Below, one piece after another: positions 8,896-49,462 of a stretch of DNA of 64,000 bases. The notes below the pieces were generated by a model that was given only the letters and a program-made list of their open reading frames with translations, ran no database searches and was not told the origin of the DNA. Each line of letters opens with the position of its first letter. Position 1 is the first letter of the stretch. Source of the stretch: Acidimicrobiales bacterium (GTDB lineage Bacteria; Actinomycetota; Acidimicrobiia; Acidimicrobiales; SHLQ01); NCBI GenBank assembly GCA_020629635.1, contig JAHDCX010000002.1, positions 25,591 to 89,590 of the forward strand, given 5' to 3'. A program made the translations under genes and the position numbers.

Positions 8896-8993
8896 GGCGG
8901 GTTCCTCCTGTAGGCGCGCCAACGCTAGCCCCACCCATCACGTGGTCCCATATCGCGCGGAACAAGTGCTCATCCACCGTTAACGTTCGGTTC

Positions 8994-10103: not shown

Positions 10104-10573
10104 CGAGGGATCCAGCGACCGCGGTCGGCGTCCGGGTGCAACGCCGTCGGACGGGCCTGGATGATCGTTCCGCCGAGTGGGACGGCCGGTCCGAGATCTC
10201 GGCCGACCTCGATCAGTTGCTCGTGGTCGACGCACTCCCGCGTGCATCACGAGACGCAACGGCCACCCTGCGCCGCTGGCGCCAGACCCTCGCTCCCGGT
10301 GCGGAGGTCTACCTGATCGAACCAACGCGTGCGATCCGGAGCGAATCCGCCGTGTCGCGGGGCGTGAGTCGGCTCCGCAGCAGGGTGGGCGAACGTCAGC
10401 GCGGCGCCCCCACCCTCGATCGAGACACCGTCCTCGCCATCCGCGACGCCGGCTGGACGATCACGTCGATCGAACGTTTCGTCGACGAAAACGGCAACTG
10501 GTGGATCGACAGTCGGCTCGTCGACGTCGCCGCGATCGTCGCGGCCGAAGCCGGCGAGACGGGCAACGACTGA
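10100..10573 (+). CDS. Hypothetical protein, methyltransferase-like remnant
   Basis: ATGA overlap with the dioxygenase stop. LRRWRQTLAPGAEVYLIEP resembles the distal part of class I SAM-MTases, but I see no GxGxG motif. Confidence 0.45.
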   Translation: MTRDPATAVGVRVQRRRTGLDDRSAEWDGRSEISADLDQLLVVDALPRASRDATATLRRWRQTLAPGAEVYLIEPTRAIRSESAVSRGVSRLRSRVGERQRGAPTLDRDTVLAIRDAGWTITSIERFVDENGNWWIDSRLVDVAAIVAAEAGETGND

Positions 10574-10585
10574 ATCAGGAATCGG

Positions 10586-10684
10586 TCAAGAGGCGAACAC
10601 GATCCCCAACAGGGGAGCGAGCATGCCGACCACGAGCAGAATGCCGATGATCAAGACCCAGCGACGGCGAGTTTCGGGAGACAC
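10586..10684 (-). CDS. Candidate 32-aa small membrane protein
   Basis: GTG-initiated ORF below the track cutoff: VSPETRRRWVLIIGILLVVGMLAPLLGIVFAS. One TM helix after a basic N-terminus. High GC3, but no clear SD. Confidence 0.25.
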   Translation of the reverse strand: MSPETRRRWVLIIGILLVVGMLAPLLGIVFAS

Positions 10685-10708
10685 GCTGCAACGTTACCGT
10701 GGCCAGCC

Positions 10709-11917: not shown

Positions 11918-11921
11918 GGCT

Positions 11922-11952
11922 CCGCAGGCCTCGGTGCGGCTTCGTATTTCGT
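11922..11952 (+). terminator. Possible intrinsic terminator after lysC
   Basis: ccgca-ggcctcgg-tgcgg hairpin followed by cttcgtatttcg. Short stem and weak U-tract. Confidence 0.25.
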
Positions 11953-12006
11953 GCGTTATGCCGATGGGCATGGCATGCTCGAGGTGGCGGTCACGTGAGG
12001 GAGCGA

Positions 12007-12912
12007 ATGGGCGAAGGCGACGACGAATCGGTCGACATCGGCTTCGTCGAGCTGTCGCCCGGACGTGCTGATGATCGGGCGACCACTTCGGGTATCAGCG
12101 CCATGGCGGTTGCCGGCGTCCTGCTCGCCGTTTGGCTTCTGGCCGCCGGGGTGACGACGGATCTGTACGCCTCGCGCTCCAACGACCGGGCCGCCCCGCT
12201 CCGAGTCGAGGGAACGACCACAACATCACCCTCAACGACGATCGTCGTGTCCTCGGAGGCGGTCACGACCACGACGACTCGGGCGCCCGACGTTGATCCC
12301 GAAGACGCCGACTCCGACGAGCCGAGATCCCTCCTCGTCGGGCTCATCCTCGTTCTGGTTGCGCTCGGACTCGTCGCCCTCTCGGTCGTGGTAATCGTCG
12401 CAGTGCTTCGCGCACTCCGCGCCCGCCGCGATCCCGATCCCGATCAGTCTGGCGGGGTGGTGCACGATGTCGAGTACGGATCTGCCCCCGAGCCTGAACC
12501 CGGCCCGGAGCCAGAGCTGGTCGAGGCCGAGATCCGGGCACTCGCAGCCGCGCAGGTTCACACCCTCGACGAACTTCTCGCCGACCTCCGCCACGACACC
12601 GAACCGGCCAGAGCCATCCAACGCGCGTACGCCACGCTCGAGACCGGCATGGGCAATCCCGGCCTCGCCCGCCGCAGGACGGAGACATGTGCGACCTACC
12701 TCGCTCGCACCATCGGTGTGGTCGACGGTGTCGACGAGCCGCTTCGAACCCTCACCACGAACTTCGAGCTCGCACGGTTCTCGACGGCCACGATCACCGA
12801 ATCGATGCGAGGCGACGCGGTCGACGCGCTCATCGCGATCCGTCGAGCCTGGCAACGGCAAGCCGACGGCGGCGTCGTGCTCGCCACGACGTTCGAAGGC
12901 CCGGACCGATGA
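12007..12912 (+). CDS. DUF4129-domain membrane protein
   Basis: SD gggag precedes ATG 12007. Two TM segments flank a Thr-rich and acidic linker. C-terminus AIQRAYATLETGM...TTNFELARFS fits the DUF4129 pattern. Confidence 0.7.
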   Translation: MGEGDDESVDIGFVELSPGRADDRATTSGISAMAVAGVLLAVWLLAAGVTTDLYASRSNDRAAPLRVEGTTTTSPSTTIVVSSEAVTTTTTRAPDVDPEDADSDEPRSLLVGLILVLVALGLVALSVVVIVAVLRALRARRDPDPDQSGGVVHDVEYGSAPEPEPGPEPELVEAEIRALAAAQVHTLDELLADLRHDTEPARAIQRAYATLETGMGNPGLARRRTETCATYLARTIGVVDGVDEPLRTLTTNFELARFSTATITESMRGDAVDALIAIRRAWQRQADGGVVLATTFEGPDR

Positions 12913-13277
12913 GTGGTCTGCTCATCATCTCCGCGGTGGCCTGCACGGTCGCCGTGCTCGTCCTGGTCGGCGCGGTCGGCGTTCGTCTTCCGTACCGGGC
13001 GTTTCATGGCGGTCCGCGGACACCGCATCCCTCCCAACCGCGAACGCTTCCAACCGCCCGCTCCTTCGACCGGCTCGCCCATCGGGTCGAGCTGGCCCGA
13101 GCCGACCCGCGGGCCTGGCAGGCCCTCCTTGCCTCGCTCAACGAGATCGAAGCCGCCATTGGACCGGTGCGAGTTGCACCGAAGGGTCCAGGAGTGCCCA
13201 GCCAGTTCGACGCCCGCTACCTCGACGCTCGACTGCGCGCCATCGAAGCCGCGATCCCCCCGAAAGGACCCACATGA
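12909..13277 (+). CDS. Small membrane protein (MoxR-module component)
   Basis: ATGA overlaps on both sides. N-terminal TM segment MSGLLIISAVACTVAVLVLVGAV. Confidence 0.5.
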   Translation: MSGLLIISAVACTVAVLVLVGAVGVRLPYRAFHGGPRTPHPSQPRTLPTARSFDRLAHRVELARADPRAWQALLASLNEIEAAIGPVRVAPKGPGVPSQFDARYLDARLRAIEAAIPPKGPT

Positions 13278-14302
13278 CCACGTCCGCGTCTCCTCCCGAC
13301 ATCCCGGGCGCGGTTGCCGTGTCTGACGTCGCCTCCGCGGCCAACGCCATCATCGACGAACTCGAGCGTGCTGTCATCGGCAAGCGAGACGTTCTCCACC
13401 AACTGCTGGTCGGCGTGCTCGCGGGCGGTCACATCCTGTTCGAAGACCTGCCCGGTCTCGCCAAGACGCTGATCGCCCGGTCCTTCGCTCAGGTCACCGA
13501 CATGGATTTCGCTCGGATTCAGTTCACCCCCGATCTCGTCCCGGCCGACATCACCGGCTCGACGATCTACAACCCGGGCACCGGCAGTGGGGTCTTCACT
13601 CCCGGACCGGTCTTCGCCAACCTCGTGCTCGGCGACGAGATCAACCGCGCCCCACCGAAGACGCAGGCGGCCGTCCTCGAAGCGATGGAGGAACGGCAGG
13701 TCACGATCGACGGCGTGTCCCATCCATTGCCAACACCCTTCACGGTCATCGCCACCCAGAATCCGATCGAGCAGGGCGGCACATATCCGCTGCCCGAAGC
13801 GCAGCTCGATCGCTTCCTGCTGAAGCTGTCTGTGGGCTATCCCGCGACGACCGACGAAACGACGATCCTGCTCCAGCGGGTCGCCCGCCAACAGGAGCAG
13901 ATCGAACTTCGCAAGGTCGTCAGCGGGCGCCAGTTGCATGCGATGCAACGTGCGGTCGAGACCGTGCACGTCGACCGGAGCGTGGCCGAATACATCGTTG
14001 GTCTCGTGGCCGACACTCGGGACAACACGAAACTGCAGGCGGGGGCGAGCCCCCGCGGTGCGCTCGGTCTTCTCAAGGCCGCCCGCGCCCATGCGGCCTT
14101 GTCCGCACGAGACTTCGTGACCCCCGACGACGTCCGCGAAATGGCCGCACCGACGCTCAGCCATCGACTCGTGCTCGACCCCGACGAGTGGCTCCGCGGG
14201 ACCGATCCGGCGGAGTTCGTTCACGGTGCGCTCTCCCGGGTCCCGGCGCCGCCGACGATCCGTCCATCGGGCAACGAGCCCACCTCGATGCACGACCGGT
14301 GA
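13274..14302 (+). CDS. MoxR-family AAA+ ATPase
   Basis: GHILFEDLPGLAKT (Walker A variant), VLGDEINRAPPKTQAAVLEAMEERQVT, and a C-terminal lid with ASPRGALGLLKAARA. Confidence 0.9.
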   Translation: MTTSASPPDIPGAVAVSDVASAANAIIDELERAVIGKRDVLHQLLVGVLAGGHILFEDLPGLAKTLIARSFAQVTDMDFARIQFTPDLVPADITGSTIYNPGTGSGVFTPGPVFANLVLGDEINRAPPKTQAAVLEAMEERQVTIDGVSHPLPTPFTVIATQNPIEQGGTYPLPEAQLDRFLLKLSVGYPATTDETTILLQRVARQQEQIELRKVVSGRQLHAMQRAVETVHVDRSVAEYIVGLVADTRDNTKLQAGASPRGALGLLKAARAHAALSARDFVTPDDVREMAAPTLSHRLVLDPDEWLRGTDPAEFVHGALSRVPAPPTIRPSGNEPTSMHDR

Positions 14303-14306
14303 TCAC

Positions 14307-15653
14307 ATGAGCCCGACCCCAAACGGTGGCCCGCCGGTGCTGGCGGCAGACATGATCACGGCCACGCTCCGGTCGACCGGCGGCGAACGCCGTGCCCGGG
14401 CTTCGTTGACACCTGCGGCGGTCAGTCTCGCCATCATGGCGATCGCGTCGGCGCTGGTCGCGATGGCGACGCGCCAGCCGGGGTTCGCCGCCATGGGGAT
14501 ACCGGCGTGGCTTGCGCTCGTGCACGCCGTGTGGACTCACCGCGAGGGTTCGTTCGATCCCGTCGTCGAAGTACCGAGCGGACCCTTCGTCGAAGGCGAT
14601 TTGGCGTACGTGAACGTGACGGTGGCGTCCGAGGTCGGGATCGGTCGCTGCGTCGTCGAGTTGCAGCCGCCGTCTGGTATCTGGCCCGGATCCGAGTCGC
14701 TCAAGGCGGCCATGTCGATCGGTGCTGGAGGAGCGACCGTCGCTCGCCTGCCGATCGAGTTTCGAGAGTGGGGGGTGTACTCGCTCGGCGAACTCGTCAT
14801 CCGGACGACCGACGCGCTGGGCCTGATCGCTCGGGACTATTCGTTCACGGTCGATTGCAGCCTGGCCGTTCGACTGCACGACGAAGACGCCCGAGAGACA
14901 CTGAGTCCGGATCGGTATCGACGGATCGTGGGAGGACACCTGAGCGCCCAGCGCGGCGAAGGGACCGAGCTCGCCGACGTTCGGGAGTACCGGCCGGGGG
15001 ATCCGATGAAGTGGATCAATTGGCGGATCAGCAACCGTCGGCGTCAACCCTGGGTCACGGTCCGTCATCCCGATCGGTCGACGACGGTGATTCTTCTCGT
15101 CGACGGGTTTGCTCGACGCGGACCGAACCTACGGGCTCAAGCGAACGTCGCGCAGGCGCTCGCCGGCGCGCATCTGGCGATCCACGATCGGGTGGGCATG
15201 CTGATTGCGGGCCCCACGCATGTGTGGATCGAGCCTCAGCTCGGTAGACGCCAGGAGTACCGACTGGCCGATGCACTCTTGCAGCTCACCACGCGGCATC
15301 GATCGTCCGACGAGGTCGACCTTCGACGGGTGATACCCCCCGACGCCCTCGTGGTGGCGATCACGTCGTTCGACGATATTCGGATCCTCCGTATCCTCGC
15401 CGAGATTCGACGACGCGGTCGGATGCTGTCGGTCGTCGAACCCGTCCTGTCCGCCGACGAGCTCCAGTCGTCGAGCGGCTCGCCGAAGTCCCTGCCGTTC
15501 GTGCGGAGGATCCACGAACTGGAGCGTGAAGTGCGACGCCGAACCCTTCGACAGCACGGACTCGTGATCGTCCCGTGGCGAAACGATGATCCAGTCAGCC
15601 TGCCGCTCGGGACGATCGCGCGGTACCGGCAACGCTCGGCAGTGAAGGCGTGA
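14307..15653 (+). CDS. DUF58-domain protein
   Basis: ELADVREYRPGDPMKWINWRISNRRRQPWV is the DUF58 signature. It starts 5 nt after the MoxR stop. Confidence 0.85.
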   Translation: MSPTPNGGPPVLAADMITATLRSTGGERRARASLTPAAVSLAIMAIASALVAMATRQPGFAAMGIPAWLALVHAVWTHREGSFDPVVEVPSGPFVEGDLAYVNVTVASEVGIGRCVVELQPPSGIWPGSESLKAAMSIGAGGATVARLPIEFREWGVYSLGELVIRTTDALGLIARDYSFTVDCSLAVRLHDEDARETLSPDRYRRIVGGHLSAQRGEGTELADVREYRPGDPMKWINWRISNRRRQPWVTVRHPDRSTTVILLVDGFARRGPNLRAQANVAQALAGAHLAIHDRVGMLIAGPTHVWIEPQLGRRQEYRLADALLQLTTRHRSSDEVDLRRVIPPDALVVAITSFDDIRILRILAEIRRRGRMLSVVEPVLSADELQSSSGSPKSLPFVRRIHELEREVRRRTLRQHGLVIVPWRNDDPVSLPLGTIARYRQRSAVKA

Positions 15654-23769: not shown

Positions 23770-24474
23770 GTGGGGCGACAACGATCAACCGGACTTCGAG
23801 CCACGCGCGTGACCATCGGAGCGGTCAGCACCGCGAGCTTCGTCGGTGTTGTCGCGTCGCTCGGTCCGCTTGCCGCGGCCGAGGACGTCACGTCGGCCGC
23901 GCTCGAACCCGCCCGTCTCCTCGGCGCTCCGGCCGCGCTCGCCTCCACGGAGGGCCTCCCGTCGGGCAGCACCTCCTCGACCATCGTGACGGCTCCCGTC
24001 GATACCGTGGGAATCACCACGTCGTCGACGCTGCTCCCGAGCGTCTTGGAGGCGCTCGTCGATCAGTCGACGAGCACCGAGGTCACCGTCGAAGAGTCTT
24101 CGAGCACCACGGCTCCCGCAACGACCCAGGCGGCGGCCACTGCCTCGACGACCCGAGCAACGACCGCGCCGACGACCGCCGCGCCGCGCGCGTCGACCCC
24201 AACATCGGCCGCGCCGACCACAGCCGCACCCAGCACCGCCGCCCCGACAACGGCCGCGCCGGCCACCACTGCGGCGCCGACCACGGCTGCCCCGACAACG
24301 GCCGCCCCGACGACCGCCGCGCCGGCCACGACCGCAGCGCCGACGACGGCCGCACCGACCACGGCTGCACCGACGACGGCTGCCCCCACCACGGTCGCTC
24401 CCACGACGACCGTGGCGACGACCACCACCGCCCCATCCACCACGCTGCCTCCGCTCACCGGCGGAAGCATGTGA
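23770..24474 (+). CDS. Secreted Thr/Pro/Ala-rich repeat protein
   Basis: GTG at 23770 after aagggacgac. Signal-like VTIGAVSTASFVGVVASLGPLAAA. About 12 APTTA-type pentapeptide repeats. Ends LPPLTGGSM. Confidence 0.55.
   Translation: MGRQRSTGLRATRVTIGAVSTASFVGVVASLGPLAAAEDVTSAALEPARLLGAPAALASTEGLPSGSTSSTIVTAPVDTVGITTSSTLLPSVLEALVDQSTSTEVTVEESSSTTAPATTQAAATASTTRATTAPTTAAPRASTPTSAAPTTAAPSTAAPTTAAPATTAAPTTAAPTTAAPTTAAPATTAAPTTAAPTTAAPTTAAPTTVAPTTTVATTTTAPSTTLPPLTGGSM
24205..24400 (+). repeat. Tandem 15-nt (pentapeptide A-P-T-T-A) coding repeat
   Basis: AAPTTAAPSTAAPTTAAPATTAAPTTAAPTTAAPTTAAPATTAAPTTAAPTTAAPTTAAPTTVAPTT. Repeat units differ at synonymous positions. Confidence 0.85.
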
Positions 24475-38462: not shown

Positions 38463-39340
38463 AGCACCGGGAACCAGTCGGTTCGCATCGGATCACCCGG
38501 CTGGAGGTCGAGGCCCTCGAGTGGGGGAGAGGTCGCACCCGGCCGCTCGACGTACACCGCGTCGTCACCGAGCCATCGAGTGCTGAAGGCGCGGCGCCGT
38601 CCGGTCACGGGCGCGGCCGTCGTCCCGTGCAGCGTGCGAAAGTCGAAGATGAGCGCGTCGCCAGCTTGGAGAGCTGCGGAGAAGACGCGCGGGTCGTCGT
38701 CGTCGACTGCGTCGGTTGAGCGCATCGTGGCGTCCTCGGACGCGTACTCAGAACCATCGACGAATGTCCGCGGTCGGTAGAGCACGCCGTCGCGGTGCGA
38801 ACCCGTGAGGAACCTGACGGCGGTTTCGGCGGGCGTGTCGTCGAGCGCGACGTACACGCTTGCCGTCTGCGATCCGTCGACGCAGTAGTACGGAAGGTCG
38901 TGATGCCACGGCGTGGCCTTGGCGACGCCACCCTCCTTGGCGAACACGTGCTCGTGGAACAACTGGGCTCGTTCGGACCGCATGCACTGCGCCGCCAGAT
39001 GGGCGGCGGGCGAGGTGAGCACGTGCGCCAAGAACTCCGGTATGCGCTGCCAGTTGCAGTAGGCGTCGAAGAAGCGGCCGGACTCGCCCCCTCGTGTGCT
39101 CTCGCACGGGAAGGCGAAACGATGCGGCGCTTCGAGCAGTCGATCGAGTCCCCGTCGAAGACGCTCGACGTCGTCCGCAAACACGCCGGGCACCTTCACG
39201 ACTCCGTCGGTTGCGAACTGTTGGACCGTCTCGGCACTGAGCTGGAGAGATGACCGCTGCGTGGATTCGACGACCGGCCCCACGTCGTCGAACACGCGCC
39301 AATCGACGGTCGACCGATTGCCGGTTTCGACCCCGCTCAC
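38453..39340 (-). CDS. Phytanoyl-CoA dioxygenase (PhyH) family protein
   Basis: TPWHHDLPYY (HxD), FLTGSHRDG, FDFRTLHGT. Confidence 0.8.
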   Translation of the reverse strand: MSGVETGNRSTVDWRVFDDVGPVVESTQRSSLQLSAETVQQFATDGVVKVPGVFADDVERLRRGLDRLLEAPHRFAFPCESTRGGESGRFFDAYCNWQRIPEFLAHVLTSPAAHLAAQCMRSERAQLFHEHVFAKEGGVAKATPWHHDLPYYCVDGSQTASVYVALDDTPAETAVRFLTGSHRDGVLYRPRTFVDGSEYASEDATMRSTDAVDDDDPRVFSAALQAGDALIFDFRTLHGTTAAPVTGRRRAFSTRWLGDDAVYVERPGATSPPLEGLDLQPGDPMRTDWFPVLWP

Positions 39341-40116
39341 GTCGCCGACCGCCTGCCGAGGAAGTCCTCGATCAGCGGCAGCAGCCGATCCGGTGCCTCG
39401 ACGACGATCGAGTGGCGAAGGCCGTCGAGCACGTGCAGCTCGCTGTCTGCGAGCAGACGGTCAATCTCGACATTGAGACGTGGACTGCATCCAGGGTCAT
39501 GCTCGCCAGTGACGATGAGACAGGGTGCGGCCACCTCGTCCAACCACGGAGCCATCTCCGTTTCGGCGTACACGTCGAACACCGAGAGAAAGACCTCGGG
39601 AGGTGTGGTCAGGACCTGCTCGATGCGGCGTTCGATGATCGCCGGGTTCGCGGCTGCGAATGGCTCGGTGTACCACCGATCGACGAGCGTCGTGAGCACG
39701 TTCTCGATGCCTTCGCGTCGCATGCGGGCGACGACTCCTTGGACTCGGGAGGCGTCGTCGGCGGTGCGGGCCGCTGCGGTGCTGAGCAGCGTGACGGTCG
39801 AGGTCGTCGTCGGAAAGCGCTGCGCATAGCGAGGTCCGATCATCCCGCCGAGCGAGTGCCCGATCAGATGGATCGCCCCCAGACCGAGACGGTTCCGCAA
39901 CGCCTCGACGTCGTCGACGAGCTGGTCCAGGGTGTACGGCACCGCTGGTGTCGGACTGTCGCCGTGTCCACGCAGGTCCATCGATACACACGTGTAGCGA
40001 TCGGCCAATGCGTCGATGAGCGCAGCCCACGTCTCCTTCCGGGATCCGATGCCGTGAACGAAGATGATCGGAGGGCCGTCGCCTGTGACGTCGTACGCGA
40101 CGTCCACCGCGGTCAT
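39337..40116 (-). CDS. Alpha/beta hydrolase
   Basis: Start MTAVDVAYDV. PIIFVHGIGS, nucleophile elbow IGHSLGG, C-terminal LRHSIVVE. Confidence 0.85.
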   Translation of the reverse strand: MTAVDVAYDVTGDGPPIIFVHGIGSRKETWAALIDALADRYTCVSMDLRGHGDSPTPAVPYTLDQLVDDVEALRNRLGLGAIHLIGHSLGGMIGPRYAQRFPTTTSTVTLLSTAAARTADDASRVQGVVARMRREGIENVLTTLVDRWYTEPFAAANPAIIERRIEQVLTTPPEVFLSVFDVYAETEMAPWLDEVAAPCLIVTGEHDPGCSPRLNVEIDRLLADSELHVLDGLRHSIVVEAPDRLLPLIEDFLGRRSAT

Positions 40117-41168
40117 CGCGCGAAGGCCGGCATGACGTCGGCGGCGAAGCGCTCGAGCATGTCGGTGGTCTCTTCGGGCGACTGTCCGAGATTCGACGAG
40201 AGGATCATCTCGTCGATGCCCCGTTCGTCGTATTCGGCCAGGCGTTCGATCATCTCGTCGGGAGTTGCGATGAGGATGTTCGCGTCGAGCTCGTCGATTG
40301 TCTGGGTGCGCGGGAGCGGCAGGATGCAGCCGTTCTCGATCATTCCGGGCCCGGTGTAAACGTTGTCGAATCGGGAGTAGTAGTCGTGGGCCATCTCGAG
40401 CTTGGCCCGACGGTCGGCCTCGTTCTCGGCGCAGTACACGAGGCGGCTCAACATGATCCGCAGATGATCGCCGTCCGAGCCGAGCTCGGCCTTGGCTTCC
40501 TTGTGGGCGTTCACCTGCATGCGGAACAGGTCGGGGTCGCCGGCGAGTGGTGTCGTCTGGATGTCGAATCCCCGCAATGTCGAGCGGCGAATGCCCTCGT
40601 GGTTCATCGTGGCGATCATCATTCGAGGCCGTGGCTGGGTGAGCGGCCTCGGCATGATCGTCATCGGACCGAAGTCGTACCAGTCGCCGTGGTGTTCGAC
40701 CTCGGTCTCGGTCAGCAGACGAAGCAGCACCTCGAGCGACTCGTCGAAGCGTTCTCGGCTCTGTTCGATGGGTGAGCCGAGGCGCTCCATCTCGTGCGCG
40801 AACGCACCGCGACCGACGCCGAGCACGAGGCGACCCTTCGTGAGGATGTCGGCCATCGCGACTTCGCCGGCAAAGACCCGCATGTCGTGGAGCGGGAGCA
40901 CGGCCACGGAGGTGATCACGTCGAGGTGTTCGGTCTCGCATGCGACGGCCACCGCCATCTGGAGCGGTGCGGGGTTCATCAGGATGTTCATGATGTGGTG
41001 TTCGGGGATCGTCACCGATCGAAACCCGAGACGCTCGGCCGTCTTGGCGTGGTCGAGCATGTCATCGACCACCCGGTGGCTGCCATAGGAGGCGTCGGGG
41101 AGATACGCCGACAAGAAGAAGTCGAAGTCCACGCCCCCATGTTCGGTGTCTTGCCCGACCGAGGGCAA
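40113..41168 (-). CDS. Luciferase-like (LLM class) flavin-dependent monooxygenase
   Basis: AERLGFRSVTIPEHH, LVLGVGRGAFAHE. TIM-barrel length of 351 aa. Confidence 0.85.
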   Translation of the reverse strand: MPSVGQDTEHGGVDFDFFLSAYLPDASYGSHRVVDDMLDHAKTAERLGFRSVTIPEHHIMNILMNPAPLQMAVAVACETEHLDVITSVAVLPLHDMRVFAGEVAMADILTKGRLVLGVGRGAFAHEMERLGSPIEQSRERFDESLEVLLRLLTETEVEHHGDWYDFGPMTIMPRPLTQPRPRMMIATMNHEGIRRSTLRGFDIQTTPLAGDPDLFRMQVNAHKEAKAELGSDGDHLRIMLSRLVYCAENEADRRAKLEMAHDYYSRFDNVYTGPGMIENGCILPLPRTQTIDELDANILIATPDEMIERLAEYDERGIDEMILSSNLGQSPEETTDMLERFAADVMPAFAR

Positions 41169-41174
41169 GTGGGG

Positions 41175-41441
41175 TCAGTCGAAGCGGTCGATCTCCCGCT
41201 CGGCGATCCGGAACAGCTCGGCCTCGAAGTCTTCGGGTTCCACCGTCGTCATGAGCGCCTCGAGGGCACGGAGCCAGGTCATACGAGCCGCATAGACGGA
41301 TCGTCGTTCGTCGAGGTCGAACGCGGCGATGTGCTCCCAGACGGCGCGATTGTGCCGGTCGACGATTGCCGCCCACGCCTTCTCATGACCCGATCGAGCC
41401 GCGTCGGCGAGGTCGGCGGTGGTGGGTTCGTTCTCGTTCAC
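41175..41441 (-). CDS. Small protein resembling a stand-alone sigma-70 region 2
   Basis: ADAARSGHEKAWAAIVDRHNRAVWEHI resembles the ECF-sigma N-terminus. 88 aa, with no region 4. First gene of the operon. Confidence 0.5.
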   Translation of the reverse strand: MNENEPTTADLADAARSGHEKAWAAIVDRHNRAVWEHIAAFDLDERRSVYAARMTWLRALEALMTTVEPEDFEAELFRIAEREIDRFD

Positions 41442-41568: not shown

Positions 41569-42195
41569 GTGGCCGGATCGAATGCCGATGACTCGGCCAT
41601 GTTGTTGGCGCTGCTCGCCGTGCCCTTCCTGGTCGCACAAGCGTTGAGTCCTCGCCGCGCCATCCTGCGGATCGAGCCCGCCGCGGTCGTGCTGCTCGTT
41701 TGCGCCGTTGGTCTTCAGCTGATCGCCGCCGTCCAACCGGACATTGCCTACGCTGCGGTGCCCACGTCATTCCTCCTCGGCACGCTTGCGTTGACCCATG
41801 TCGCCTGGGAGTCGTCGAAGCGGCGCCTCCCGGCCGCACTGGCGGCGCTCGGCGGGACGATGAATCTGATCCCGATCACGATCTACGGTGCGATGCCGGT
41901 CGTGCGTTCGAGCCGTGAGCATGTCTCGGCGACGCCGATTGAGGAGCCCGAACTCCTCTCCGCGAAACACGTCGAACTCGATCTCCAGCTCTGGCCGAAC
42001 CCGGTCAGCCTGCTCGCCGACTGGATGCCCCTTCCGTGGATCAACGCGGTGATCAGTCCGGGCGACATTCTCCTGTTCGGCGCATTTCTCGTGCTTGGCG
42101 TGCACGCGGCCCGAACGACGAGTCCCGAACTTCAGATGGCTCCGAATGCGGCGAACAGCGCGACCGATGGGTCTTCGCTGATCACCGCAGCCTGA
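41569..42195 (+). CDS. DUF5317-like membrane protein
   Basis: LGGTMNLIPITIYGAMPVV and ISPGDILLFGAFLVLG fit the DUF5317 pattern. The 3' end overlaps the convergent CHAT gene by 64 nt. Confidence 0.6.
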   Translation: MAGSNADDSAMLLALLAVPFLVAQALSPRRAILRIEPAAVVLLVCAVGLQLIAAVQPDIAYAAVPTSFLLGTLALTHVAWESSKRRLPAALAALGGTMNLIPITIYGAMPVVRSSREHVSATPIEEPELLSAKHVELDLQLWPNPVSLLADWMPLPWINAVISPGDILLFGAFLVLGVHAARTTSPELQMAPNAANSATDGSSLITAA

Positions 42196-44558
42196 GCATT
42201 CGCCAGGGCGTGCGCCATCGTGGCGCCGGCGAGCATCTCGGTGTGCATCGACGTCATGAGGGCGACCGAGCGCTCGTCGTTTGCTGCTCCCGAGTTCGTC
42301 ACCAATCCGCGGCATCCTCGAGCGATGAGCACCGAGGCGAGGCCGAGTGACGAGCGGCCTGCGTTTCGACCGATTTCGCACGACGAGAAAACCAGCCGCG
42401 ACGGCACTGGGCCGTCCGCCAACAGGTCGTAGAACGTGAGTGGACCGTCGGCGAGTTCGAGGTTGCTCATCAGCGGATTGTCCGCTCGGAAGTGCCCGTG
42501 TGCGGCGAAGTGGACGAGGTCTGCGGATCGAAAGGCTTCGCGCACCGCGTCTGGTGAGGAGTCGCCCGGATCGATCCGGACGGCGTCGGGGTGGAGTGCC
42601 TGAAGTGCATCCAGTTCGCGGTCGGCGAAGTCCAGCCTCGGTCCGCCCACCAACACGACGTTCTCGATCGGAGGTGGATCGTGAGTCATGGCCACTCGGT
42701 GTTCGTACAGCGACGAGGCGTTGTGGACGTCGGCGGTGGTGAGCAGAGCCCACGGAATCGGTTCGAGATCAGGCTCTGTGATGGAGATGAAACGTTCTAT
42801 TCCATCGAACTGCGCGACGACCGGGCCGAGGATGTCTCGCAGGCCACCGATCAGCTTCTCGAGCCGCGTCGTGACGCCACCTGCGTTCATGCTGAGCGCT
42901 GTCTGGGCGCTCACCAATGCCCGCCGAAGCGTCGACCGGTCGATCGGACCGACGATCCGTTCATCGGTTGGGCTGAGGAACACCGCGCCCCAGAGCTCCT
43001 CACCACCGATCCCGAGCAGATGCACACTCGGACGATCGCTGATCGTCTCGGGTTCGACGTGCGTACCGACGCCCGAGTGGCGTTGACGCAGCGAGCGCAG
43101 CTCGTTCTCGAGACCGTGCAGGTCGGTCTCGATCAACGTCCTGGTCGCGCCCGAGGGGAGCGACTCGAGCTCCCGGACTCGAGCGCGGATCTGGTCCACG
43201 ATCGCCCGCTCGTTGTCATCGAGTGAGGGTTCTGGGGTGAAGAGCAGCTGTCGCTCTCGCTCGATGACTTCGGCGAGTCGATGCGCATCTCCGTTCTCGA
43301 TGGCGACTCGAGCGGCAACTTGGGTGAGTTGGCGCACCCGACCGTCGAGCACCGCCCGAACGTCAGACACGCCGAGGACGGAGGCCTGTGCGTCGGCCCG
43401 GTCATAGAAATCGTCAATGTGTCCGTTCACGGCACCCTGGTTGCTCTCCAGCCAAGCGAGCGCAGCAGCAGCCGCGGCGGCGTGAACCTGTCGGAGCGAG
43501 GACGTCCAGCCTTCGGTGGCCTCAGCCGACAGCAGCTCTCGGGCCAGCTCGGGTCGTCGATCCAGCAGATGGAATCCAGCGTCGACCGCGAGATCAGGGT
43601 GTGCCGTCAGTCCCTCGTCCGGGTCGAGGGTTGCGTTCTCGTCGACGAGGAGGTCGAGGACCTGTAGGGCTGCGCGGGCATCGATGACCTCCGCGGTCTC
43701 CTCGATACCTGCGGTTGTCGCAAGCGCGTCCTCGACCACTGCGCGGGCGGTTGCCCAGTCGCGTTGCATGGTGTGAACGCGGGCCCGCGCCATCGCGGTC
43801 TGCAGGACGCGGTGTGGGATGTGGTGAGCTCGGAATGCTTCGTCCGCACGTGCGAGTGCATCCATTGCTTCGGTTACAAGCCCGGCGTCGAGGAGAGCTC
43901 GACCCTTCTCGAGATGGGACTCTCCTGCGTCGATTCGATAGCCGTCGAAGGTCTGACTCTGCTCGAACAGATCGAGTGCTTCGGAGAGTCGTCCGCTGCG
44001 TGCGGCGATCGTCGCGAGATTGAATGTTCCACGCCGGTATGCGTACGAACCAGGGTCAACTCGCTCAAGGCACCGCTCGAGGGCCTCTTTGGCCTGGCCG
44101 AGTCGACCTGAGTAGATCGCGAGCACTCCAAGGTTGATCAGTCCGATCGGGACGCGCAATGCGGGGGCGGGGTCTGCGTCGACGCTCTCGAGAAAAGCCT
44201 GTTCGGCGTCGTCGAATCGTCGAAGTTCCGCATAGATCGTCCCGAGGAAGCTCCAGAGTCGGTGGACGAGCCCCGTGTCTCGCAGCCGAACGATGTCGGC
44301 GTTCAGACGCGTCGCCGCCTCGAGTGGCGATCCACCGAACGAGATGTCCATTGCCCTGGCACAGCACAGGATGCACTCGACATCACCATCGGCCGTCGAG
44401 TCGATCCAGTCGTCGAGTTCGGGGGGAGCGGGCTCTCCGAGTCGAACGCGACCGAGCACTGCGAATGCGCGCTGGTCCTCGGACGCGTCATCAGGCGGTT
44501 CGTTGTATCGCGTGGGATGTTCGATCAGGTCCGCCCAAATGGCGTCCAGATCGGTCAT
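42132..44558 (-). CDS. TPR-repeat protein with C-terminal CHAT (caspase-like) protease domain
   Basis: C-terminus carries LVHFAAHGHF (His) and LVFSSCEIG (Cys), the CHAT dyad context. The N-terminal 500 aa are helical, TPR-like repeats. No Walker A motif seen. Confidence 0.85.
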   Translation of the reverse strand: MTDLDAIWADLIEHPTRYNEPPDDASEDQRAFAVLGRVRLGEPAPPELDDWIDSTADGDVECILCCARAMDISFGGSPLEAATRLNADIVRLRDTGLVHRLWSFLGTIYAELRRFDDAEQAFLESVDADPAPALRVPIGLINLGVLAIYSGRLGQAKEALERCLERVDPGSYAYRRGTFNLATIAARSGRLSEALDLFEQSQTFDGYRIDAGESHLEKGRALLDAGLVTEAMDALARADEAFRAHHIPHRVLQTAMARARVHTMQRDWATARAVVEDALATTAGIEETAEVIDARAALQVLDLLVDENATLDPDEGLTAHPDLAVDAGFHLLDRRPELARELLSAEATEGWTSSLRQVHAAAAAAALAWLESNQGAVNGHIDDFYDRADAQASVLGVSDVRAVLDGRVRQLTQVAARVAIENGDAHRLAEVIERERQLLFTPEPSLDDNERAIVDQIRARVRELESLPSGATRTLIETDLHGLENELRSLRQRHSGVGTHVEPETISDRPSVHLLGIGGEELWGAVFLSPTDERIVGPIDRSTLRRALVSAQTALSMNAGGVTTRLEKLIGGLRDILGPVVAQFDGIERFISITEPDLEPIPWALLTTADVHNASSLYEHRVAMTHDPPPIENVVLVGGPRLDFADRELDALQALHPDAVRIDPGDSSPDAVREAFRSADLVHFAAHGHFRADNPLMSNLELADGPLTFYDLLADGPVPSRLVFSSCEIGRNAGRSSLGLASVLIARGCRGLVTNSGAANDERSVALMTSMHTEMLAGATMAHALANAQAAVISEDPSVALFAAFGAI

Positions 44559-44579
44559 CTCCTCATCGGCAACCGTGGA

Positions 44580-44939
44580 TCAGTTGAGCCAGTTCGTGGC
44601 CCAGACGTCGGCGTCGGCGTCGATGACGAAGCGGAAGCTCTGCGTGGGAGGGGTCAACTCGAAGGTGCCGATGAAGTCCACGTCGATCGTCTCGACGTTC
44701 GCCTTGGTCTGCAGGTGCACGGCCACCACGTCGTCTGCGTCGAGCACGCCCGTCAGGAGCCCATCTTCGACCGACCAGAGAAGGCTCGTGTCGTTGCGCT
44801 CGACACGGTGAGCATCGAGGGTCGCTGACGAGCGGATGCCCACGAGGTCAGCGGCGCCGCTCGCTTCGACGACAGGAACGTCGCGAAAGGCGAAGGCAGC
44901 CTTGGCTTCGTCGCCGATGTGGTCAATCGATTCGCTCAT
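44580..44939 (-). CDS. Hypothetical 119-aa protein upstream of the CHAT gene
   Basis: ORF 44580..44939, 21 nt from the CHAT start. Acidic and probably all-beta. No recognisable motif. Confidence 0.55.
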   Translation of the reverse strand: MSESIDHIGDEAKAAFAFRDVPVVEASGAADLVGIRSSATLDAHRVERNDTSLLWSVEDGLLTGVLDADDVVAVHLQTKANVETIDVDFIGTFELTPPTQSFRFVIDADADVWATNWLN

Positions 44940-45021
44940 GCAGTCCCGTCTCCGATTGCGTTTCGCTCACTGTATCGAGCGCGGCAACGGAGGACCAGAG
45001 TCGAATCGATTACAACCTCTC

Positions 45022-45123
45022 TCAGCTCGTGAACATTGGCGCTGCGGTGGTGAACCACAGGGCTGCGCCGAAGGCGACGAGACCGAGACTGCGGGCGATG
45101 GTGCGAAACTGCGACTTGCTCAT
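45022..45123 (-). CDS. Candidate 33-aa membrane peptide
   Basis: MSKSQFRTIARSLGLVAFGAALWFTTAAPMFTS. SD aggagag lies 7 nt upstream of the ATG. High GC3. Below the ORF-track cutoff. Confidence 0.4.
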   Translation of the reverse strand: MSKSQFRTIARSLGLVAFGAALWFTTAAPMFTS

Positions 45124-45205
45124 TGCGTTCTCTCCTGTGATTGCGGGATGCACAAGAGATCGGCATGTCACGTCGGGGGTCTTGATGGCTCTCCCATGGG
45201 TCGTT

Positions 45206-45223
45206 GCTCCCGCCGAGGGGAGC
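45206..45223. terminator. Stem-loop downstream of the oxidoreductase gene
   Basis: gctccc-gccgag-gggagc, 34 nt past the stop at 45257. No clear U-tract on the minus strand. Confidence 0.3.
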
Positions 45224-45256
45224 CGTTTGGCCCAGTTCTGAGCCAGGAGCGTGGGA

Positions 45257-48200
45257 TCAGCGCTGCAAGACCTGCGCAACCGTGTTCCGGAAGCGTTCGA
45301 CATTTGCCAGCTTGATGTCCTCGTAGCCCCGCACCAGGTCGGCGGCATCGGCGATCTCGATCGCTCGATCCAGCGCGTCGGATTGATTGCCGGCGAGCGC
45401 CTCGTCGAGCGCGGCGAGGTACTCGCTGGGCAGGGCACGTTCGACCCTGCGAACCTCGGCACGCCCGAACACGTCTGCACTCGTTCCGCGCAGCTTCTTG
45501 CCTCGAGCGAGGGCGGCAACCGCTGGTGTTGCCCACGAGCCGATCGTGATCTTGCTCTCCATGCCGAGGGCTCGAAGCATCGGCGGGTGCAGCTTCCAGG
45601 CAACGGCGCCGCCTTCGCCGGCGTGGGTGTGTGCCGCCGCGGTGGCCTCGACATCGAGCATGAGGCGTGCGACCTCGTACTCGTCCTTGTATGCCGTGAG
45701 TTTGAAGAGTCCCTCGGCGACGGACTCGAGTAGCCCAGTCGACGCCGGATCGTGCGAGCGTTCCTTTGTTGCGACGTCGGCGAGGTGGGCGAGGAAGACC
45801 TTGGCCGTGTCGTCGTCGCCCCAGGCGACCAGTTCGACGGCGAGACGATCGATCCGTGCCCGGAGTGTGCCCGAGACATTCATCGCGTCGAGTTCGGCGC
45901 CGTATCGTTCGGGCGCTCCCGTCTGCGCGTCGTCATCGGTGGTCGACGTGGCGCGTTCGACGGCGGTCGGATCGTCCACCCACGCGCGACCCCAACGAAA
46001 GGCCGCGACGTTGGCGTCGACGGCCACCCCGTTGAGGCCGATGGCCGCTTCGATCTGGGCGGGGTCGATCGGGAGGGCACCAGCCTGGACCGCCATGCCG
46101 ACGACGAAGATGTTGGCGGTCGTCGCGTTGCCGAAGAGGTCGGTCGTGATCCGCTGCGCGTCGGCCCAGAACTGGTTGGGTGCGGCACGCTCGGCGATGC
46201 GTGCTTCGAGCTCGTCGGCCGACGGCATCGGGATCTCCGGGCTCGTGATCATCGATCCTGTCGGCGTCGTCGAGCTCGAGCCGACGACGATCGTGTGATC
46301 TTCGGCCGTCGAGGCCCGTCCCTTCGCCGACGCGGCGACGAGCTGATCGAACGCGAGCAGAAGATCCGCCTGTGCTTCACCGAGGCGGTTGGTGAACGAC
46401 GGTCCAGACTTCGACAACCGGATGTCGGAGACCACCGGACCGGCCTTCTGAGAGAGCCCGATCTGATCGAGGCCCCGCACGTCGAACCCGTCGAGCATCG
46501 CTGCGGTCCCAAGCACCTGGGCGACGGTGACGACGCCTGTGCCTCCGATTCCGGTGATCCGAAGTGCGAAGTCGTCGGTGTCCACGACGATCGTCGGAGA
46601 CGGCACGGGGGGTGGGGTGGAGACGGGGTCTGTCCCCGGGTCGGACGAAGAGGATGACGGCGTTGGTGCACTCTGTGCGGGGTCTGAACCCGTCGCTCCG
46701 CGGGTGCGCCGGGTGCGGGACAGGGCCCGCATGGCGAGCTTGGCCACCCTCCCCGGCTCTTCGGTCGTCACGGTCATGAATGAGGGGCAGTCGCCCTCGA
46801 GGCAGCTGTAGTCGAGATTGCAGGTGGTCTGATCGATCGTGGTCTTGCGTCCAAATTCGGTGTCGAGCGGCTGCACCGAGAGACAGTTCGAGACCTGACC
46901 GCAGTCGCCGCACCCCTCACAGATCCTGTGGTTGATGAACACGGTCTGATTGGGGGTCTCCACCAGTCCGCGCTTGCGAGCTCGACGGGCTTCGGCGGCG
47001 CACGCCTGGTCGTGGATGAGCACGGTCACTCCAGAGACCTCGGCGAGCGTCTCCTGCGCTTCGAGCAGCCGGGTTCGGTCCCACACCTCGACCTCGCGGG
47101 GCAGATCGAGAGCCTTGGTCCGGCCCGGGTCGTCCGAGGTGATGAGGACCTTGGCGGCGCCGTCGATGAGCAGCGTTCGGGCGATCTGCGCGATCCCGAG
47201 CTGGCCCTCGGGGTCCTGACCACCCGTCATGGCGACGGTCCCGTTGTAGAGCAGCTTGTAGGTGATGTTGACGTCAGCGGCGATCGCGGCGCGGATGGCG
47301 AGTTGGCCGGAGTGGAAGTAGGTGCCGTCGCCGAGGTTCTGGATGAGGTGCGGGGTTTCGACGAAGTCGCTCATCCCGATCCATTGCGTGCCCTCGTTGC
47401 CCATGCACGTGAGGCCGGCGATCTCGCCGACGCGGTCTGGGTCCATCAACAGCGTCATCGTGTGGCACCCGATGCCAGCGCCCACGAGCGACCCATCCGG
47501 CACCTCGGTGCTGCGGTTGTGCGGGCAGCCCGAGCAGAAGAACGGGGTGCGTTCGACACCGAGCGCGATGGGGATGCGCGTGCGTTCCTTGCGCTCCGGG
47601 ACCAGACGATCGCCGAGTCGTTCGGCGAGTCGGCGTCGCAGGATCGGCACGATGCCGTCTGCGTCGAGTGCACCCCAGCTCGGGAACAAGATGCCGCCGA
47701 CCTCGTCCTGCTTGCCGACGACGATCGGGCGGTCCGGCATCGAATAGAGCGCGTCCTTGAGCAGCGATTCGATGTTGGGTTGCTTCTCCTCGACGACCAG
47801 GATCTCGTCGAGACCTTTGGCGAAGCTGCGCATCGTGGCTGGGTTGAACGGCATCGGCATGCCCATCTTGAGCAGCCGAATCCCTGCGGACTCGAGCTCG
47901 GCATCGGTCCGGAGGCCGAGTCGGGACAGTGCTTCGCGAACTTCGCGGTACGTGATGCCCGATGCGATGAGTCCGATCCATCCGTCGGATGGGTCGACCG
48001 TGACGTGGTTGAGCTTGTTCTCCGCTGCGTAGGTGCGGGCCAGTTCGTAGCGCACTTCCACGATCTCCCGCTCGATGTCGACCGTGTGTGGTGTGAGCAG
48101 ATTGCCGTCTGGGACGTGGTGATACGGAATGCCGTCGAGGAGCGGAATCACGGGCCGCACCCGGTCGGGCGAAAGGTCGACGTTGGCGGTCGCATCGGCG

Positions 48201-48817
48201 ACGTCGGCGACGATCTTCAGCGCCGACCAGAGCCCCGTCGCTCGACTGAGGGCGATGGCGTGCCGTCCGAGGTCGAGAGCCTCGCCAGGGTCACCGGGGT
48301 ACAGGAGCGGCATGTGCATGTCGGCCAGGAGACCTGCGGAGCTCGAGGGGACCGTCGAACTCTTGGCGTTCGGGTCGTCGCCCACGATCGCGACGGCGCC
48401 ACCGAGCATCGAGGTCCCGGCGAACACGGCGTGACGGAGTGCATCTGCGGCTCGATCGACACCCGGAGCCTTTCCGTACCAGATCCCGACCACACCATCC
48501 CACAGTGCGTCGGGCCGTCCGCCGGCGAGCTGCGAACCCATCACCGCCGTTGCGCCGTACTCCTCGTTCATGCCGTACTTGAAAACCACGGGAAGCTGCG
48601 GGTCGGTCTTGGCGGCGCGGACGACCGCCTCGCCGTAGCCACCGAGCGGCGAGCCCTGATATCCGCTGACGAAGGCGGCCGTGCGGTGTCCGTTTCTGCG
48701 GTCGGCTCGGAGCTGTTCGAGGGGAAGGCGGGCGAGCGCCTGAATGCCGGTCAAGAAGACCGTCCCGTCGTCGGCGGCGAATCGGTCTTCGAGGCGGTAG
48801 TTCTCGAGCGTGGTCAT
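45257..48817 (-). CDS. Indolepyruvate:ferredoxin oxidoreductase-family protein (fused alpha/beta)
   Basis: Start MTTLENYRLEDRF. TPP-binding GIGCHTM, ferredoxin-like CEGCGDCGQVSNC and CLEGDCPSF, and a C-terminal IorB-like region. 1186 aa. Confidence 0.9.
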   Translation of the reverse strand: MTTLENYRLEDRFAADDGTVFLTGIQALARLPLEQLRADRRNGHRTAAFVSGYQGSPLGGYGEAVVRAAKTDPQLPVVFKYGMNEEYGATAVMGSQLAGGRPDALWDGVVGIWYGKAPGVDRAADALRHAVFAGTSMLGGAVAIVGDDPNAKSSTVPSSSAGLLADMHMPLLYPGDPGEALDLGRHAIALSRATGLWSALKIVADVADATANVDLSPDRVRPVIPLLDGIPYHHVPDGNLLTPHTVDIEREIVEVRYELARTYAAENKLNHVTVDPSDGWIGLIASGITYREVREALSRLGLRTDAELESAGIRLLKMGMPMPFNPATMRSFAKGLDEILVVEEKQPNIESLLKDALYSMPDRPIVVGKQDEVGGILFPSWGALDADGIVPILRRRLAERLGDRLVPERKERTRIPIALGVERTPFFCSGCPHNRSTEVPDGSLVGAGIGCHTMTLLMDPDRVGEIAGLTCMGNEGTQWIGMSDFVETPHLIQNLGDGTYFHSGQLAIRAAIAADVNITYKLLYNGTVAMTGGQDPEGQLGIAQIARTLLIDGAAKVLITSDDPGRTKALDLPREVEVWDRTRLLEAQETLAEVSGVTVLIHDQACAAEARRARKRGLVETPNQTVFINHRICEGCGDCGQVSNCLSVQPLDTEFGRKTTIDQTTCNLDYSCLEGDCPSFMTVTTEEPGRVAKLAMRALSRTRRTRGATGSDPAQSAPTPSSSSSDPGTDPVSTPPPVPSPTIVVDTDDFALRITGIGGTGVVTVAQVLGTAAMLDGFDVRGLDQIGLSQKAGPVVSDIRLSKSGPSFTNRLGEAQADLLLAFDQLVAASAKGRASTAEDHTIVVGSSSTTPTGSMITSPEIPMPSADELEARIAERAAPNQFWADAQRITTDLFGNATTANIFVVGMAVQAGALPIDPAQIEAAIGLNGVAVDANVAAFRWGRAWVDDPTAVERATSTTDDDAQTGAPERYGAELDAMNVSGTLRARIDRLAVELVAWGDDDTAKVFLAHLADVATKERSHDPASTGLLESVAEGLFKLTAYKDEYEVARLMLDVEATAAAHTHAGEGGAVAWKLHPPMLRALGMESKITIGSWATPAVAALARGKKLRGTSADVFGRAEVRRVERALPSEYLAALDEALAGNQSDALDRAIEIADAADLVRGYEDIKLANVERFRNTVAQVLQR

Positions 48818-48931
48818 GGGAAACCTGTCTGTCGTGCGGATTCCGATGCTCGAGTATCGGCAACGTTCGGACCGAAGTCGATCGATTCGAACAAGATTCG
48901 GTCGTGCGGATACCTCGATACACTTCGTTCG

Positions 48932-49462
48932 ATGAGTGACACGGGTCACCCCCCGAAAACCGAACGCCATGCGGGTCCGTCGACACCCGAACCTGTCGGC
49001 GCGATCCGAAGCGACGCAGACCGGGTGCTCTTGGCTGAGCTCCAGCGTGATGCGCGCCAGACCAACCGGGCTCTCGCACGAACTGCGGAATTGGCCCCGT
49101 CCACCACGCTCGCGCGGGTCCGCGAGCTCGAACAGCGCGGGGCCATCTCGGGCTACCACGCACGCGTCGATCTGAGTGCACTCGGACGATCGCTCCAGGC
49201 GCTCGTATTCGTCCGGTTGCAGCCCAAGAGCGACGACATCATCGCGGGCTTCCTCGACCACGTCTGGGCCCTTCCCGAAACGATCGCCGTCAGTTTGATC
49301 ACCGGTATCGAAGACGTCGTCATTCACCTCGCCGTCGGGGATGCGGCTGCGCTGCAATCGGTGCTGCTCAACGAGATCAGCTCGTTCCCCGGAGTGTTTG
49401 ATGAGCGCACATCGCTGCTGTTCGAGCAACGACGAAAGACGGTGATCGACCCGCTCGGATGA
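48932..49462 (+). CDS. Lrp/AsnC-family regulator
   Basis: Last 176 codons of ORF 46928..49462. LLAELQRDARQTNRALARTAELAPSTTLARVRELEQRGAISGY plus a RAM domain. Divergent from the oxidoreductase. Confidence 0.85.
   Translation: MSDTGHPPKTERHAGPSTPEPVGAIRSDADRVLLAELQRDARQTNRALARTAELAPSTTLARVRELEQRGAISGYHARVDLSALGRSLQALVFVRLQPKSDDIIAGFLDHVWALPETIAVSLITGIEDVVIHLAVGDAAALQSVLLNEISSFPGVFDERTSLLFEQRRKTVIDPLG

Follow-up and report, generated by a model that had tools for sequence, protein, structure and literature searches.

Gene content of the locus

Investigation of a 64,000-nucleotide (nt) stretch of DNA from an Acidimicrobiales bacterium (contig JAHDCX010000002.1; this whole 64-kb stretch is referred to below as the window, and its G+C content is about 65%) revealed a gene for a protease that joins TPR repeats to a CHAT domain, together with four further genes and a non-coding leader that accompany it. 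The nearest relative among the collections searched is the Acidimicrobiales metagenome-assembled genome (MAG) JAHDDK010000003, in which the corresponding locus is designated L001/L002; other related loci carry L numbers in the same way. The features of the window's locus are as follows, with protein lengths in amino acids (aa).

41175-41441, minus strand: sigma-2-only homologue of a sigma factor of the ECF type (extracytoplasmic function), 88 aa (BLASTP and NCBIfam)
41569-42195, plus strand: DUF5317 polytopic membrane protein, 208 aa (Pfam DUF5317)
42132-44558, minus strand: TPR-CHAT protease, 808 aa (Pfam CHAT and TPR)
44580-44939, minus strand: acidic partner protein, 119 aa, with a 21-nt gap to the start of the CHAT gene
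45022-45123, minus strand: small membrane peptide, 33 aa, with an 82-nt gap to the gene of the 119-aa protein
45155-45238, minus strand: conserved non-coding leader upstream of the 33-aa open reading frame (ORF), 81% identical to L001

The first-pass annotation of this DNA had described a trio consisting of the peptide, the partner and the protease; these three ORFs lie on the minus strand at the positions and with the gaps that it had assigned to them, and profile searches return both CHAT and TPR. As a trio, however, the unit was drawn too narrowly, the sigma-2-only homologue and the DUF5317 gene also being conserved members. The peptide, the partner, the TPR-CHAT protease with its intact catalytic dyad, the DUF5317 protein and the sigma-derived protein form a conserved five-gene unit. 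Between the window and L001 the ratio of non-synonymous to synonymous substitution rates (dN/dS) is 0.24-0.40 in all five genes, at synonymous divergences (dS) of 0.6-1.7; therefore the truncated forms of the genes, described below, are old and under purifying selection. Since the peptide, partner and CHAT genes share a strand, are separated by short gaps and have no terminator-like site between them (none was found in a sequence scan of the operon), we infer that they are co-transcribed.

The TPR-CHAT protease

The 808-aa protein is a single chain in which N-terminal TPR repeats (TPR_2, TPR_8, TPR_12, TPR_16 and TPR_1, all exceeding the Pfam cut-off within residues 100-282) are followed by a C-terminal CHAT domain (PF12770; residues 640-796, with a score of 74.2 bits where the cut-off is 24, E 1.5e-20). 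The motif HFAAHG begins at residue 683 and the motif FSSCE at residue 724; the codons of the dyad residues His687 and Cys727 occupy 42498-42500 and 42378-42380, respectively, and neither residue varies in 9 homologues, whose identity is about 30%. When the PDB was searched with a profile of the C-terminal 250 residues, the best match among solved structures was DdvA (8rot_B, E 2.3e-9); in profile alignment His687 and Cys727 line up with H862 and C907 of DdvA, the dyad defined for that protein (PMC11506125), and with the corresponding HG and C residues of the Craspase TPR-CHAT chains. The dyad that had been read from the two motifs at first pass is thus correctly aligned.

The N-terminus of the protein is acidic and soluble. 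No hydrophobic segment of transmembrane grade is present in the 808 residues, the maximum 19-residue hydropathy of 1.54 falling within the TPR region, and no anti-sigma domain was found in the protein by Pfam. The gene has a dN/dS of 0.31 between the window and L001. Judged from these sequence features, the protein is a predicted cytoplasmic TPR-CHAT caspase-like protease with an intact dyad.

The partner protein and its family

The 119-aa partner has an isoelectric point (pI) of 4.1 and no match in Pfam or NCBIfam. Orthologues are encoded directly upstream of a TPR-CHAT gene in the MAG (L001/L002, 66% identity) and on short contigs (L003/L004, 95% identity), and the gene has a dN/dS of 0.24 between the window and L001. 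An exhaustive HMMER search delimits a narrow family of 25 representatives of 114-177 aa, among which the contexts of L009 and L015 were examined, and scans of genome contigs and of metagenome contigs with alignments of the 119-aa family returned one locus each.

This narrow family is related to a family of sigma-coupled proteins of about 150 aa (hhalign probability 98.9%, E 2.3e-17, 136 columns). The homology needed profile-profile comparison, BLASTP of the 119-aa protein against the 158-aa protein of Tessaracoccus giving no significant match. The joint profile of the two families covers more than 2,189 clusters, none of them with a Pfam domain or an informative name.

An AlphaFold (AF2) model of the 119-aa protein from a 78-sequence alignment reaches a predicted local distance difference test (pLDDT) score of 80.9, with a core above 90, whereas a 3-sequence alignment gave an unusable pLDDT of 39.6. 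The modelled fold starts with a single helix at the N-terminus and continues as a beta-sandwich of seven to eight strands, of immunoglobulin/fibronectin type III (Ig/FN3) appearance. An extra N-terminal helix (consensus ...ARxAxxxADPxPxxV...) is found in the relatives of 140-177 aa and not in the window, L001 or L003. From the alignments the 119-aa protein is identified as an N-terminally shortened member of a helix-plus-Ig-like family of about 150 aa. CarboxypepD_reg is matched weakly by 6 of the 78 family members (best E 3.4e-4), and these matches probably explain the label "carboxypeptidase" in the published description of the sigma factor group ECF54.

The sigma-2-like protein

The 88-aa protein is 36% identical over 73 aa to the sigma factor of L009 (BLASTP, E 4e-12) and 39% identical to that of L015, and is matched weakly by the sigma models of NCBIfam (E 3e-4, profile positions 6-83 of 193). 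It stops at the end of sigma-2, and because the next gene starts at 41168, 7 nt on, sigma-4 has no room after the ORF. Besides this sigma-2 homologue, no sigma match was obtained in the 64-kb window.

In the alignment, the window and L001 have xxYAAR where full-length relatives have EDVxQ, and the tryptophan of the WLxTTxRE motif of those relatives is lost in both. In ECF sigma factors EDVxQ and WLxTTxRE belong to region 2.2 and region 2.3/2.4, respectively, and serve to bind the core enzyme and to recognise the -10 element. Promoter recognition by the 88-aa protein is doubtful because sigma-4 is absent and the core motifs are altered, and the protein probably no longer directs it. The L001 orthologue has 89 aa, and dN/dS between the two is 0.29.

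The membrane peptide, the leader and the DUF5317 protein

The 33-aa peptide (MSKSQFRTIARSLGLVAFGAALWFTTAAPMFTS) has a basic N-terminus and a single hydrophobic span (pI 12, maximum hydropathy 1.59) and is without a Pfam match; the Shine-Dalgarno sequence AGGAGAG lies 7 nt ahead of its ATG. Homologues directly precede the partner gene in L001/L002 (32 aa), in L003 (partial), in L008 (33 aa) and in L015 (35 aa); they have in common the motif G-x-(A/S)-LWF-x-x-AAP, in its longer form LG..(A/G)(F/L)G(A/S)(A/S)LWF..AAP, and the gene was called independently by gene callers in three assemblies. Over a core of 23 codons, 8 synonymous changes and no non-synonymous ones separate the window from L001 (neutral P ~5e-5). 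This positional conservation in relatives and the restriction of core changes to synonymous ones indicate that chance alone does not account for the 33-aa ORF. Conserved membrane peptides of 32-35 aa such as this one are seldom named by annotation pipelines. The association of both small ORFs with the protease, proposed at first pass, is borne out by their conservation beside CHAT homologues (L001/L002, L003 and L015 among others).

In L009, positions 1868-2128 encode an 86-aa protein where the 33-aa peptide would stand. Its N-terminus (AAVTMLFGAPASA) is peptide-like and resembles a cleavable signal peptide, and an acidic tail with two cysteines follows. Possibly the 33-aa peptide derives from a secreted protein of which a signal-peptide-like part has remained.

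The leader (45155-45238) is identical to L001 7632-7715 at 68 of 84 positions (81%) without gaps, despite a dS of 0.6-1.7 in the adjacent genes and a different upstream gene in L001. It occurs once in the window and can be loosely aligned in L015 and L008, with a shared TCAAG and a GAAC-TGG-like stretch. No Rfam match was obtained for the leader, the locus giving at permissive thresholds two sub-threshold chance matches only, and the RNA fold of the leader is not unusually stable (z -1.37). A sequence scan of the locus found no sigma-70-like promoter; when the upstream regions were inspected by eye for an ECF-type promoter motif, an "ATCA...TCTCT" pattern was seen in some loci, but its spacing in the window is inconsistent and we do not claim it as a promoter motif. 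The leader may be the promoter, an operator or another regulatory region of the operon, and is a candidate for each.

Regarding the 208-aa membrane protein, DUF5317 is matched with 35.4 bits against a cut-off of 25; the protein is 59% identical to the L001 copy, with a dN/dS of 0.29. Its gene is convergent with the CHAT gene, the 3' ends overlapping by 64 nt in the window, and the convergent arrangement is also present in L001 and L015. The overlap measures 58-64 nt in the three genomes (window 42132-42195; L001 10736-10793; L015 4059-4122), and this conserved antisense overlap could couple the expression of the two genes.

Related loci and the origin of the unit

Sigma, partner and TPR-CHAT genes are found together in other genomes.

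L009: 86-aa gene, 177-aa partner, 797-aa TPR-CHAT protein, convergent ECF sigma factor
L015: 35-aa peptide, 140-aa partner, 843-aa TPR-CHAT protein, convergent DUF5317 gene, full 183-aa ECF sigma factor
L005, L010 and L013: ECF sigma gene overlapping the gene of a 150/151-aa partner by 8 nt, with S8 and TPR-CHAT genes alongside
L006 (Tessaracoccus): co-directional genes for the sigma factor, the 158-aa partner and the CHAT protein, the first two overlapping by 4 nt and the CHAT gene following at a distance of 0 nt
L014 (Nonomuraea gerenzanensis): sigma factor, partner and CHAT genes together

The five-gene unit of the window descends from this sigma/partner/TPR-CHAT module. In L005, L006, L010 and L013 the ECF sigma gene shares its 3' end with the partner gene, and in the larger family a Peptidase_S8 (subtilase) gene is usually close by as well. 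Overlap with the sigma gene is the usual placement of an anti-sigma gene and a classic mark of a stoichiometric sigma regulator. In L006, two proteins of 736 and 851 aa without Pfam domains are encoded downstream of the CHAT gene (8505-14421), and so is a second caspase-like protease, a Peptidase_C14 (caspase) protein that also has peptidoglycan-binding domains.

The gene order of L015 is exactly that of the window. Since L015 has this order with a full sigma factor and a full partner, the window lineage has lost sigma-4 and the first helix of the partner together, a joint loss that would be expected if partner helix 1 contacts sigma-4. L016 was considered as an independent test of this correlated loss and rejected, being a decayed locus without a sigma gene in which a 114-aa partner stands beside a 109-aa CHAT fragment (440-1191). 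Decay is also evident in L011 (5724-6456) and L012, where a 94-aa sigma-4-only fragment overlaps a full 151-aa partner and is accompanied, downstream of the partner, by a CHAT remnant of 36-45 aa, with 36 aa in L011.

Clearly decayed loci such as L011 and L016 exist elsewhere, and in the window the sigma factor and the partner are truncated, as possibly is the peptide, with 33 aa where L009 has 86 aa; on these grounds the locus might be read as a decaying ECF54-type remnant without coordinated function. We regard this as very improbable: the five genes are intact in both the window and L001 and evolve at the dN/dS of 0.24-0.40 (dS 0.6-1.7) given above, the dyad of the protease is intact, and the core of the peptide has changed at synonymous sites only.

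Proposed function

We interpret the locus, with a probability of roughly 0.55, as a reduced variant of an actinobacterial ECF sigma/partner/TPR-CHAT signalling module that acts as a protease-gated switch. The wider module family has already been catalogued bioinformatically as the context of ECF54; the window holds a new reduced variant of it. In the mechanism that we propose, the partner would bind the sigma-derived protein, a binding suggested because the partner gene overlaps the sigma gene in relatives; the TPR region of the protease would sense a signal; and the activated His687/Cys727 site would then cleave the partner or the partner-sigma complex, switching the output. The cleavage step would parallel the cutting of Csx30 by Csx29 and the TPR-CHAT anti-sigma factor DdvA. 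The 32-35-aa membrane peptide and the DUF5317 protein, which are specific to the clade of the window, might, by way of speculation, provide membrane tethering or a membrane-derived input. Because the 88-aa protein is without sigma-4 and its core motifs are altered, the output in the window lineage probably lies in a protein-protein switch and not in the recognition of promoters by that protein. Of the unit for signalling or defence that the first-pass annotation had envisaged, the idea of a protease with a small partner stands, whereas the defence part finds no support, as set out in the following section.

Several observations weigh against the interpretation as a protease-gated switch. Who binds whom, what is cleaved, and what the signal and the output are, we infer, for the family as a whole as well as for the window, and the genomic contexts inspected number about 10. 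No known anti-sigma domain (anti-sigma domain (ASD) class I/II, zf-HC2, RskA or NepR) was found in any of 78 family members at E up to 1, NCBIfam gives no anti-sigma match for the 119-aa protein, and Foldseek of the partner model against the PDB returns generic Ig/FN3-like matches only (best E 0.08). The lack of a known anti-sigma domain weakens the label "known anti-sigma" and not an anti-sigma action of the partner. The genomic context of the loci matches that of ECF54, and it is from this context that the sigma factors of the relatives are tentatively assigned to the group. The window has neither a full sigma factor nor an S8 subtilase within 64 kb (tblastn with the S8 protein of L010 found no Peptidase_S8), so that the canonical output does not apply to it as such. 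Sigma-4 and partner helix 1 were lost together once in evolution, in a single lineage (the window, L001 and probably L003).

The same parts could be connected differently, with the sigma-derived protein itself as the substrate of the protease and the 119-aa protein as an adaptor, a substrate receptor or a regulon target. The reviews that treat ECF54 give it no anti-sigma factor and suggest that proteases encoded nearby act on the sigma factor directly (PMC8999054; PMC7826278), which would suit this arrangement, as would a partner without a known anti-sigma domain; yet in four loci the sigma and partner genes share 4-8 nt, a placement typical of a stoichiometric binding partner, and in the window the partner gene lies 21 nt from the protease gene, with the sigma-2 gene apart, beyond the convergent gene. 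On balance we consider it unlikely that the sigma-derived protein is the substrate.

The interpretation as a protease-gated switch can also be extended, tentatively and as a joint claim that we hold to be doubtful. In this extension the protein of about 150 aa would be the missing regulator of ECF54, as an anti-sigma factor or a protease adaptor, and the window would hold a minimal version in which a sigma-2 domain, deprived of sigma-4 and of the motifs that contact RNA polymerase and DNA, would have been exapted to a non-transcriptional role, as one subunit of a membrane-linked switch together with the TPR-CHAT protease, the 33-aa peptide and the DUF5317 protein. If this is true, the interface between the partner and sigma-4 would be mapped by what was lost together, sigma-4 on one side and the first helix of the partner on the other.

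Neighbouring genes and the question of a defence role

A luciferase-like monooxygenase and an alpha/beta-hydrolase are encoded as a pair at 39337-41168 of the window, downstream of the sigma-2 gene, and the equivalent pair of L001 (5834-7626) is found upstream of the small ORF instead; these neighbours were relocated between the window and L001, and the five-gene module and its leader stayed intact. Directly upstream of the module, on the minus strand at 45257-49429, lies the gene of a large protein resembling indolepyruvate/2-oxoacid:ferredoxin oxidoreductases, with a CxxCxxCxxxC iron-sulfur motif, and beyond it a divergent gene for an AsnC-type regulator. A 4Fe-4S protein has been noted near ECF54 genes (Casas-Pastor et al., PMC7826278), and its resemblance to the oxidoreductase of the window may be coincidence. 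Farther away, at 24149-24422, the window contains a degenerate tandem repeat with periods of 15, 30, 45, 63 and 78, rich in ACC, GCC and CCG codons, which is probably a linker rich in Pro, Thr and Ala within a coding region.

A self-contained unit for defence or programmed cell death would have the CHAT protein as effector, restrained by the 119-aa protein as a securin-like inhibitor, and its link to sigma factors would be historical. CHAT proteases serve as effectors in Craspase, a functional sigma factor has been lost in the variant of the window, and the module has remained intact between the window and L001 while the flanking genes were rearranged. We nevertheless consider a defence or cell death unit decidedly unlikely: PADLOC gives no match for any of the five locus proteins, no CRISPR-like array was found in the window, and the neighbours are metabolic genes; moreover, purifying selection still acts on the sigma-2 gene and relatives keep a full sigma factor.

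Comparison with known systems

Regarding ECF54, no anti-sigma factor has been assigned to the group (PMC8999054) and no regulator is known (PMC7826278); its genomic context comprises carboxypeptidase-, subtilase- and CHAT-domain proteins, and proteolytic control has been proposed from this context (PMC8999054). The window resembles these neighbourhoods in its TPR-CHAT protein, in its ECF sigma homologue and, less surely, in its small beta-sandwich protein, whose family bears a weak likeness to the carboxypeptidase regulatory-like domain; the relatives L005, L010 and L013 have an S8 subtilase in addition. It departs from them in having sigma-2 only (88 aa) in place of a full factor with sigma-2 and sigma-4, in the absence of a subtilase, in a partner without the first helix, and in the addition of the 33-aa membrane peptide and the DUF5317 protein. 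The first-pass annotation had known of no described system with this make-up; across the family, however, the context matches that of the catalogued ECF54 neighbourhoods (PMC8999054; PMC7826278). The locus establishes no new principle. ECF54 is one ECF sigma group for which no regulator has been identified, and the loci offer a concrete model, in which the small protein encoded in overlap with the sigma gene would bind the sigma factor and would have the TPR-CHAT protein as its protease. The reduced variants can serve as natural deletion mutants for mapping interfaces.

In type III-E CRISPR systems, the TPR-CHAT protein Csx29 cleaves Csx30, the inhibitor of an ECF-like sigma factor (PMC10028731). 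The analogy with Craspase drawn at first pass, of a TPR-CHAT protease that may act on a small protein encoded beside it, is apt: in both cases a TPR-CHAT protein is encoded with an ECF sigma factor and a small protein, which in Craspase is the sigma inhibitor and the substrate, and the dyad region can be aligned with the CHAT domain of the window. Unlike Craspase, the window has no cas genes, no Cas7-11/gRAMP, no CRISPR RNA (crRNA) and no CRISPR array; the activator cannot be a target RNA, and the partner is unrelated to Csx30 in sequence as far as tested.

DdvA of Myxococcus xanthus is an anti-sigma factor that carries a periplasmic TPR-CHAT region, for which self-cleavage has been proposed (PMC11506125). 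DdvA-DdvS (PDB 8rot/8rw5) provides the closest solved CHAT domain and links TPR-CHAT functionally to an ECF sigma factor. DdvA is one transmembrane chain whose N-terminal part is a zinc-binding anti-sigma domain and whose TPR-CHAT region is periplasmic, whereas the TPR-CHAT protein of the window is separate and soluble, and any sigma-binding role would fall to the protein of 119-150 aa.

A three-helix motif that completes the substrate pocket is present in separase and Craspase and not in DdvA. The pair of separase and securin resembles the locus in joining a TPR-like superhelix to a CHAT/caspase-like domain, possibly restrained by a small acidic partner, but it is eukaryotic, the sequence signal is marginal (E ~0.07-0.1) and lies outside the dyad region, and there is no evidence of the 119-aa protein as a pseudosubstrate. 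The proposed model, in which a TPR-CHAT protease acts on a sigma-binding element encoded beside it, would mirror the logic established by experiment for Csx29-Csx30-sigma and DdvA-DdvS, without CRISPR and without a membrane-spanning anti-sigma factor.

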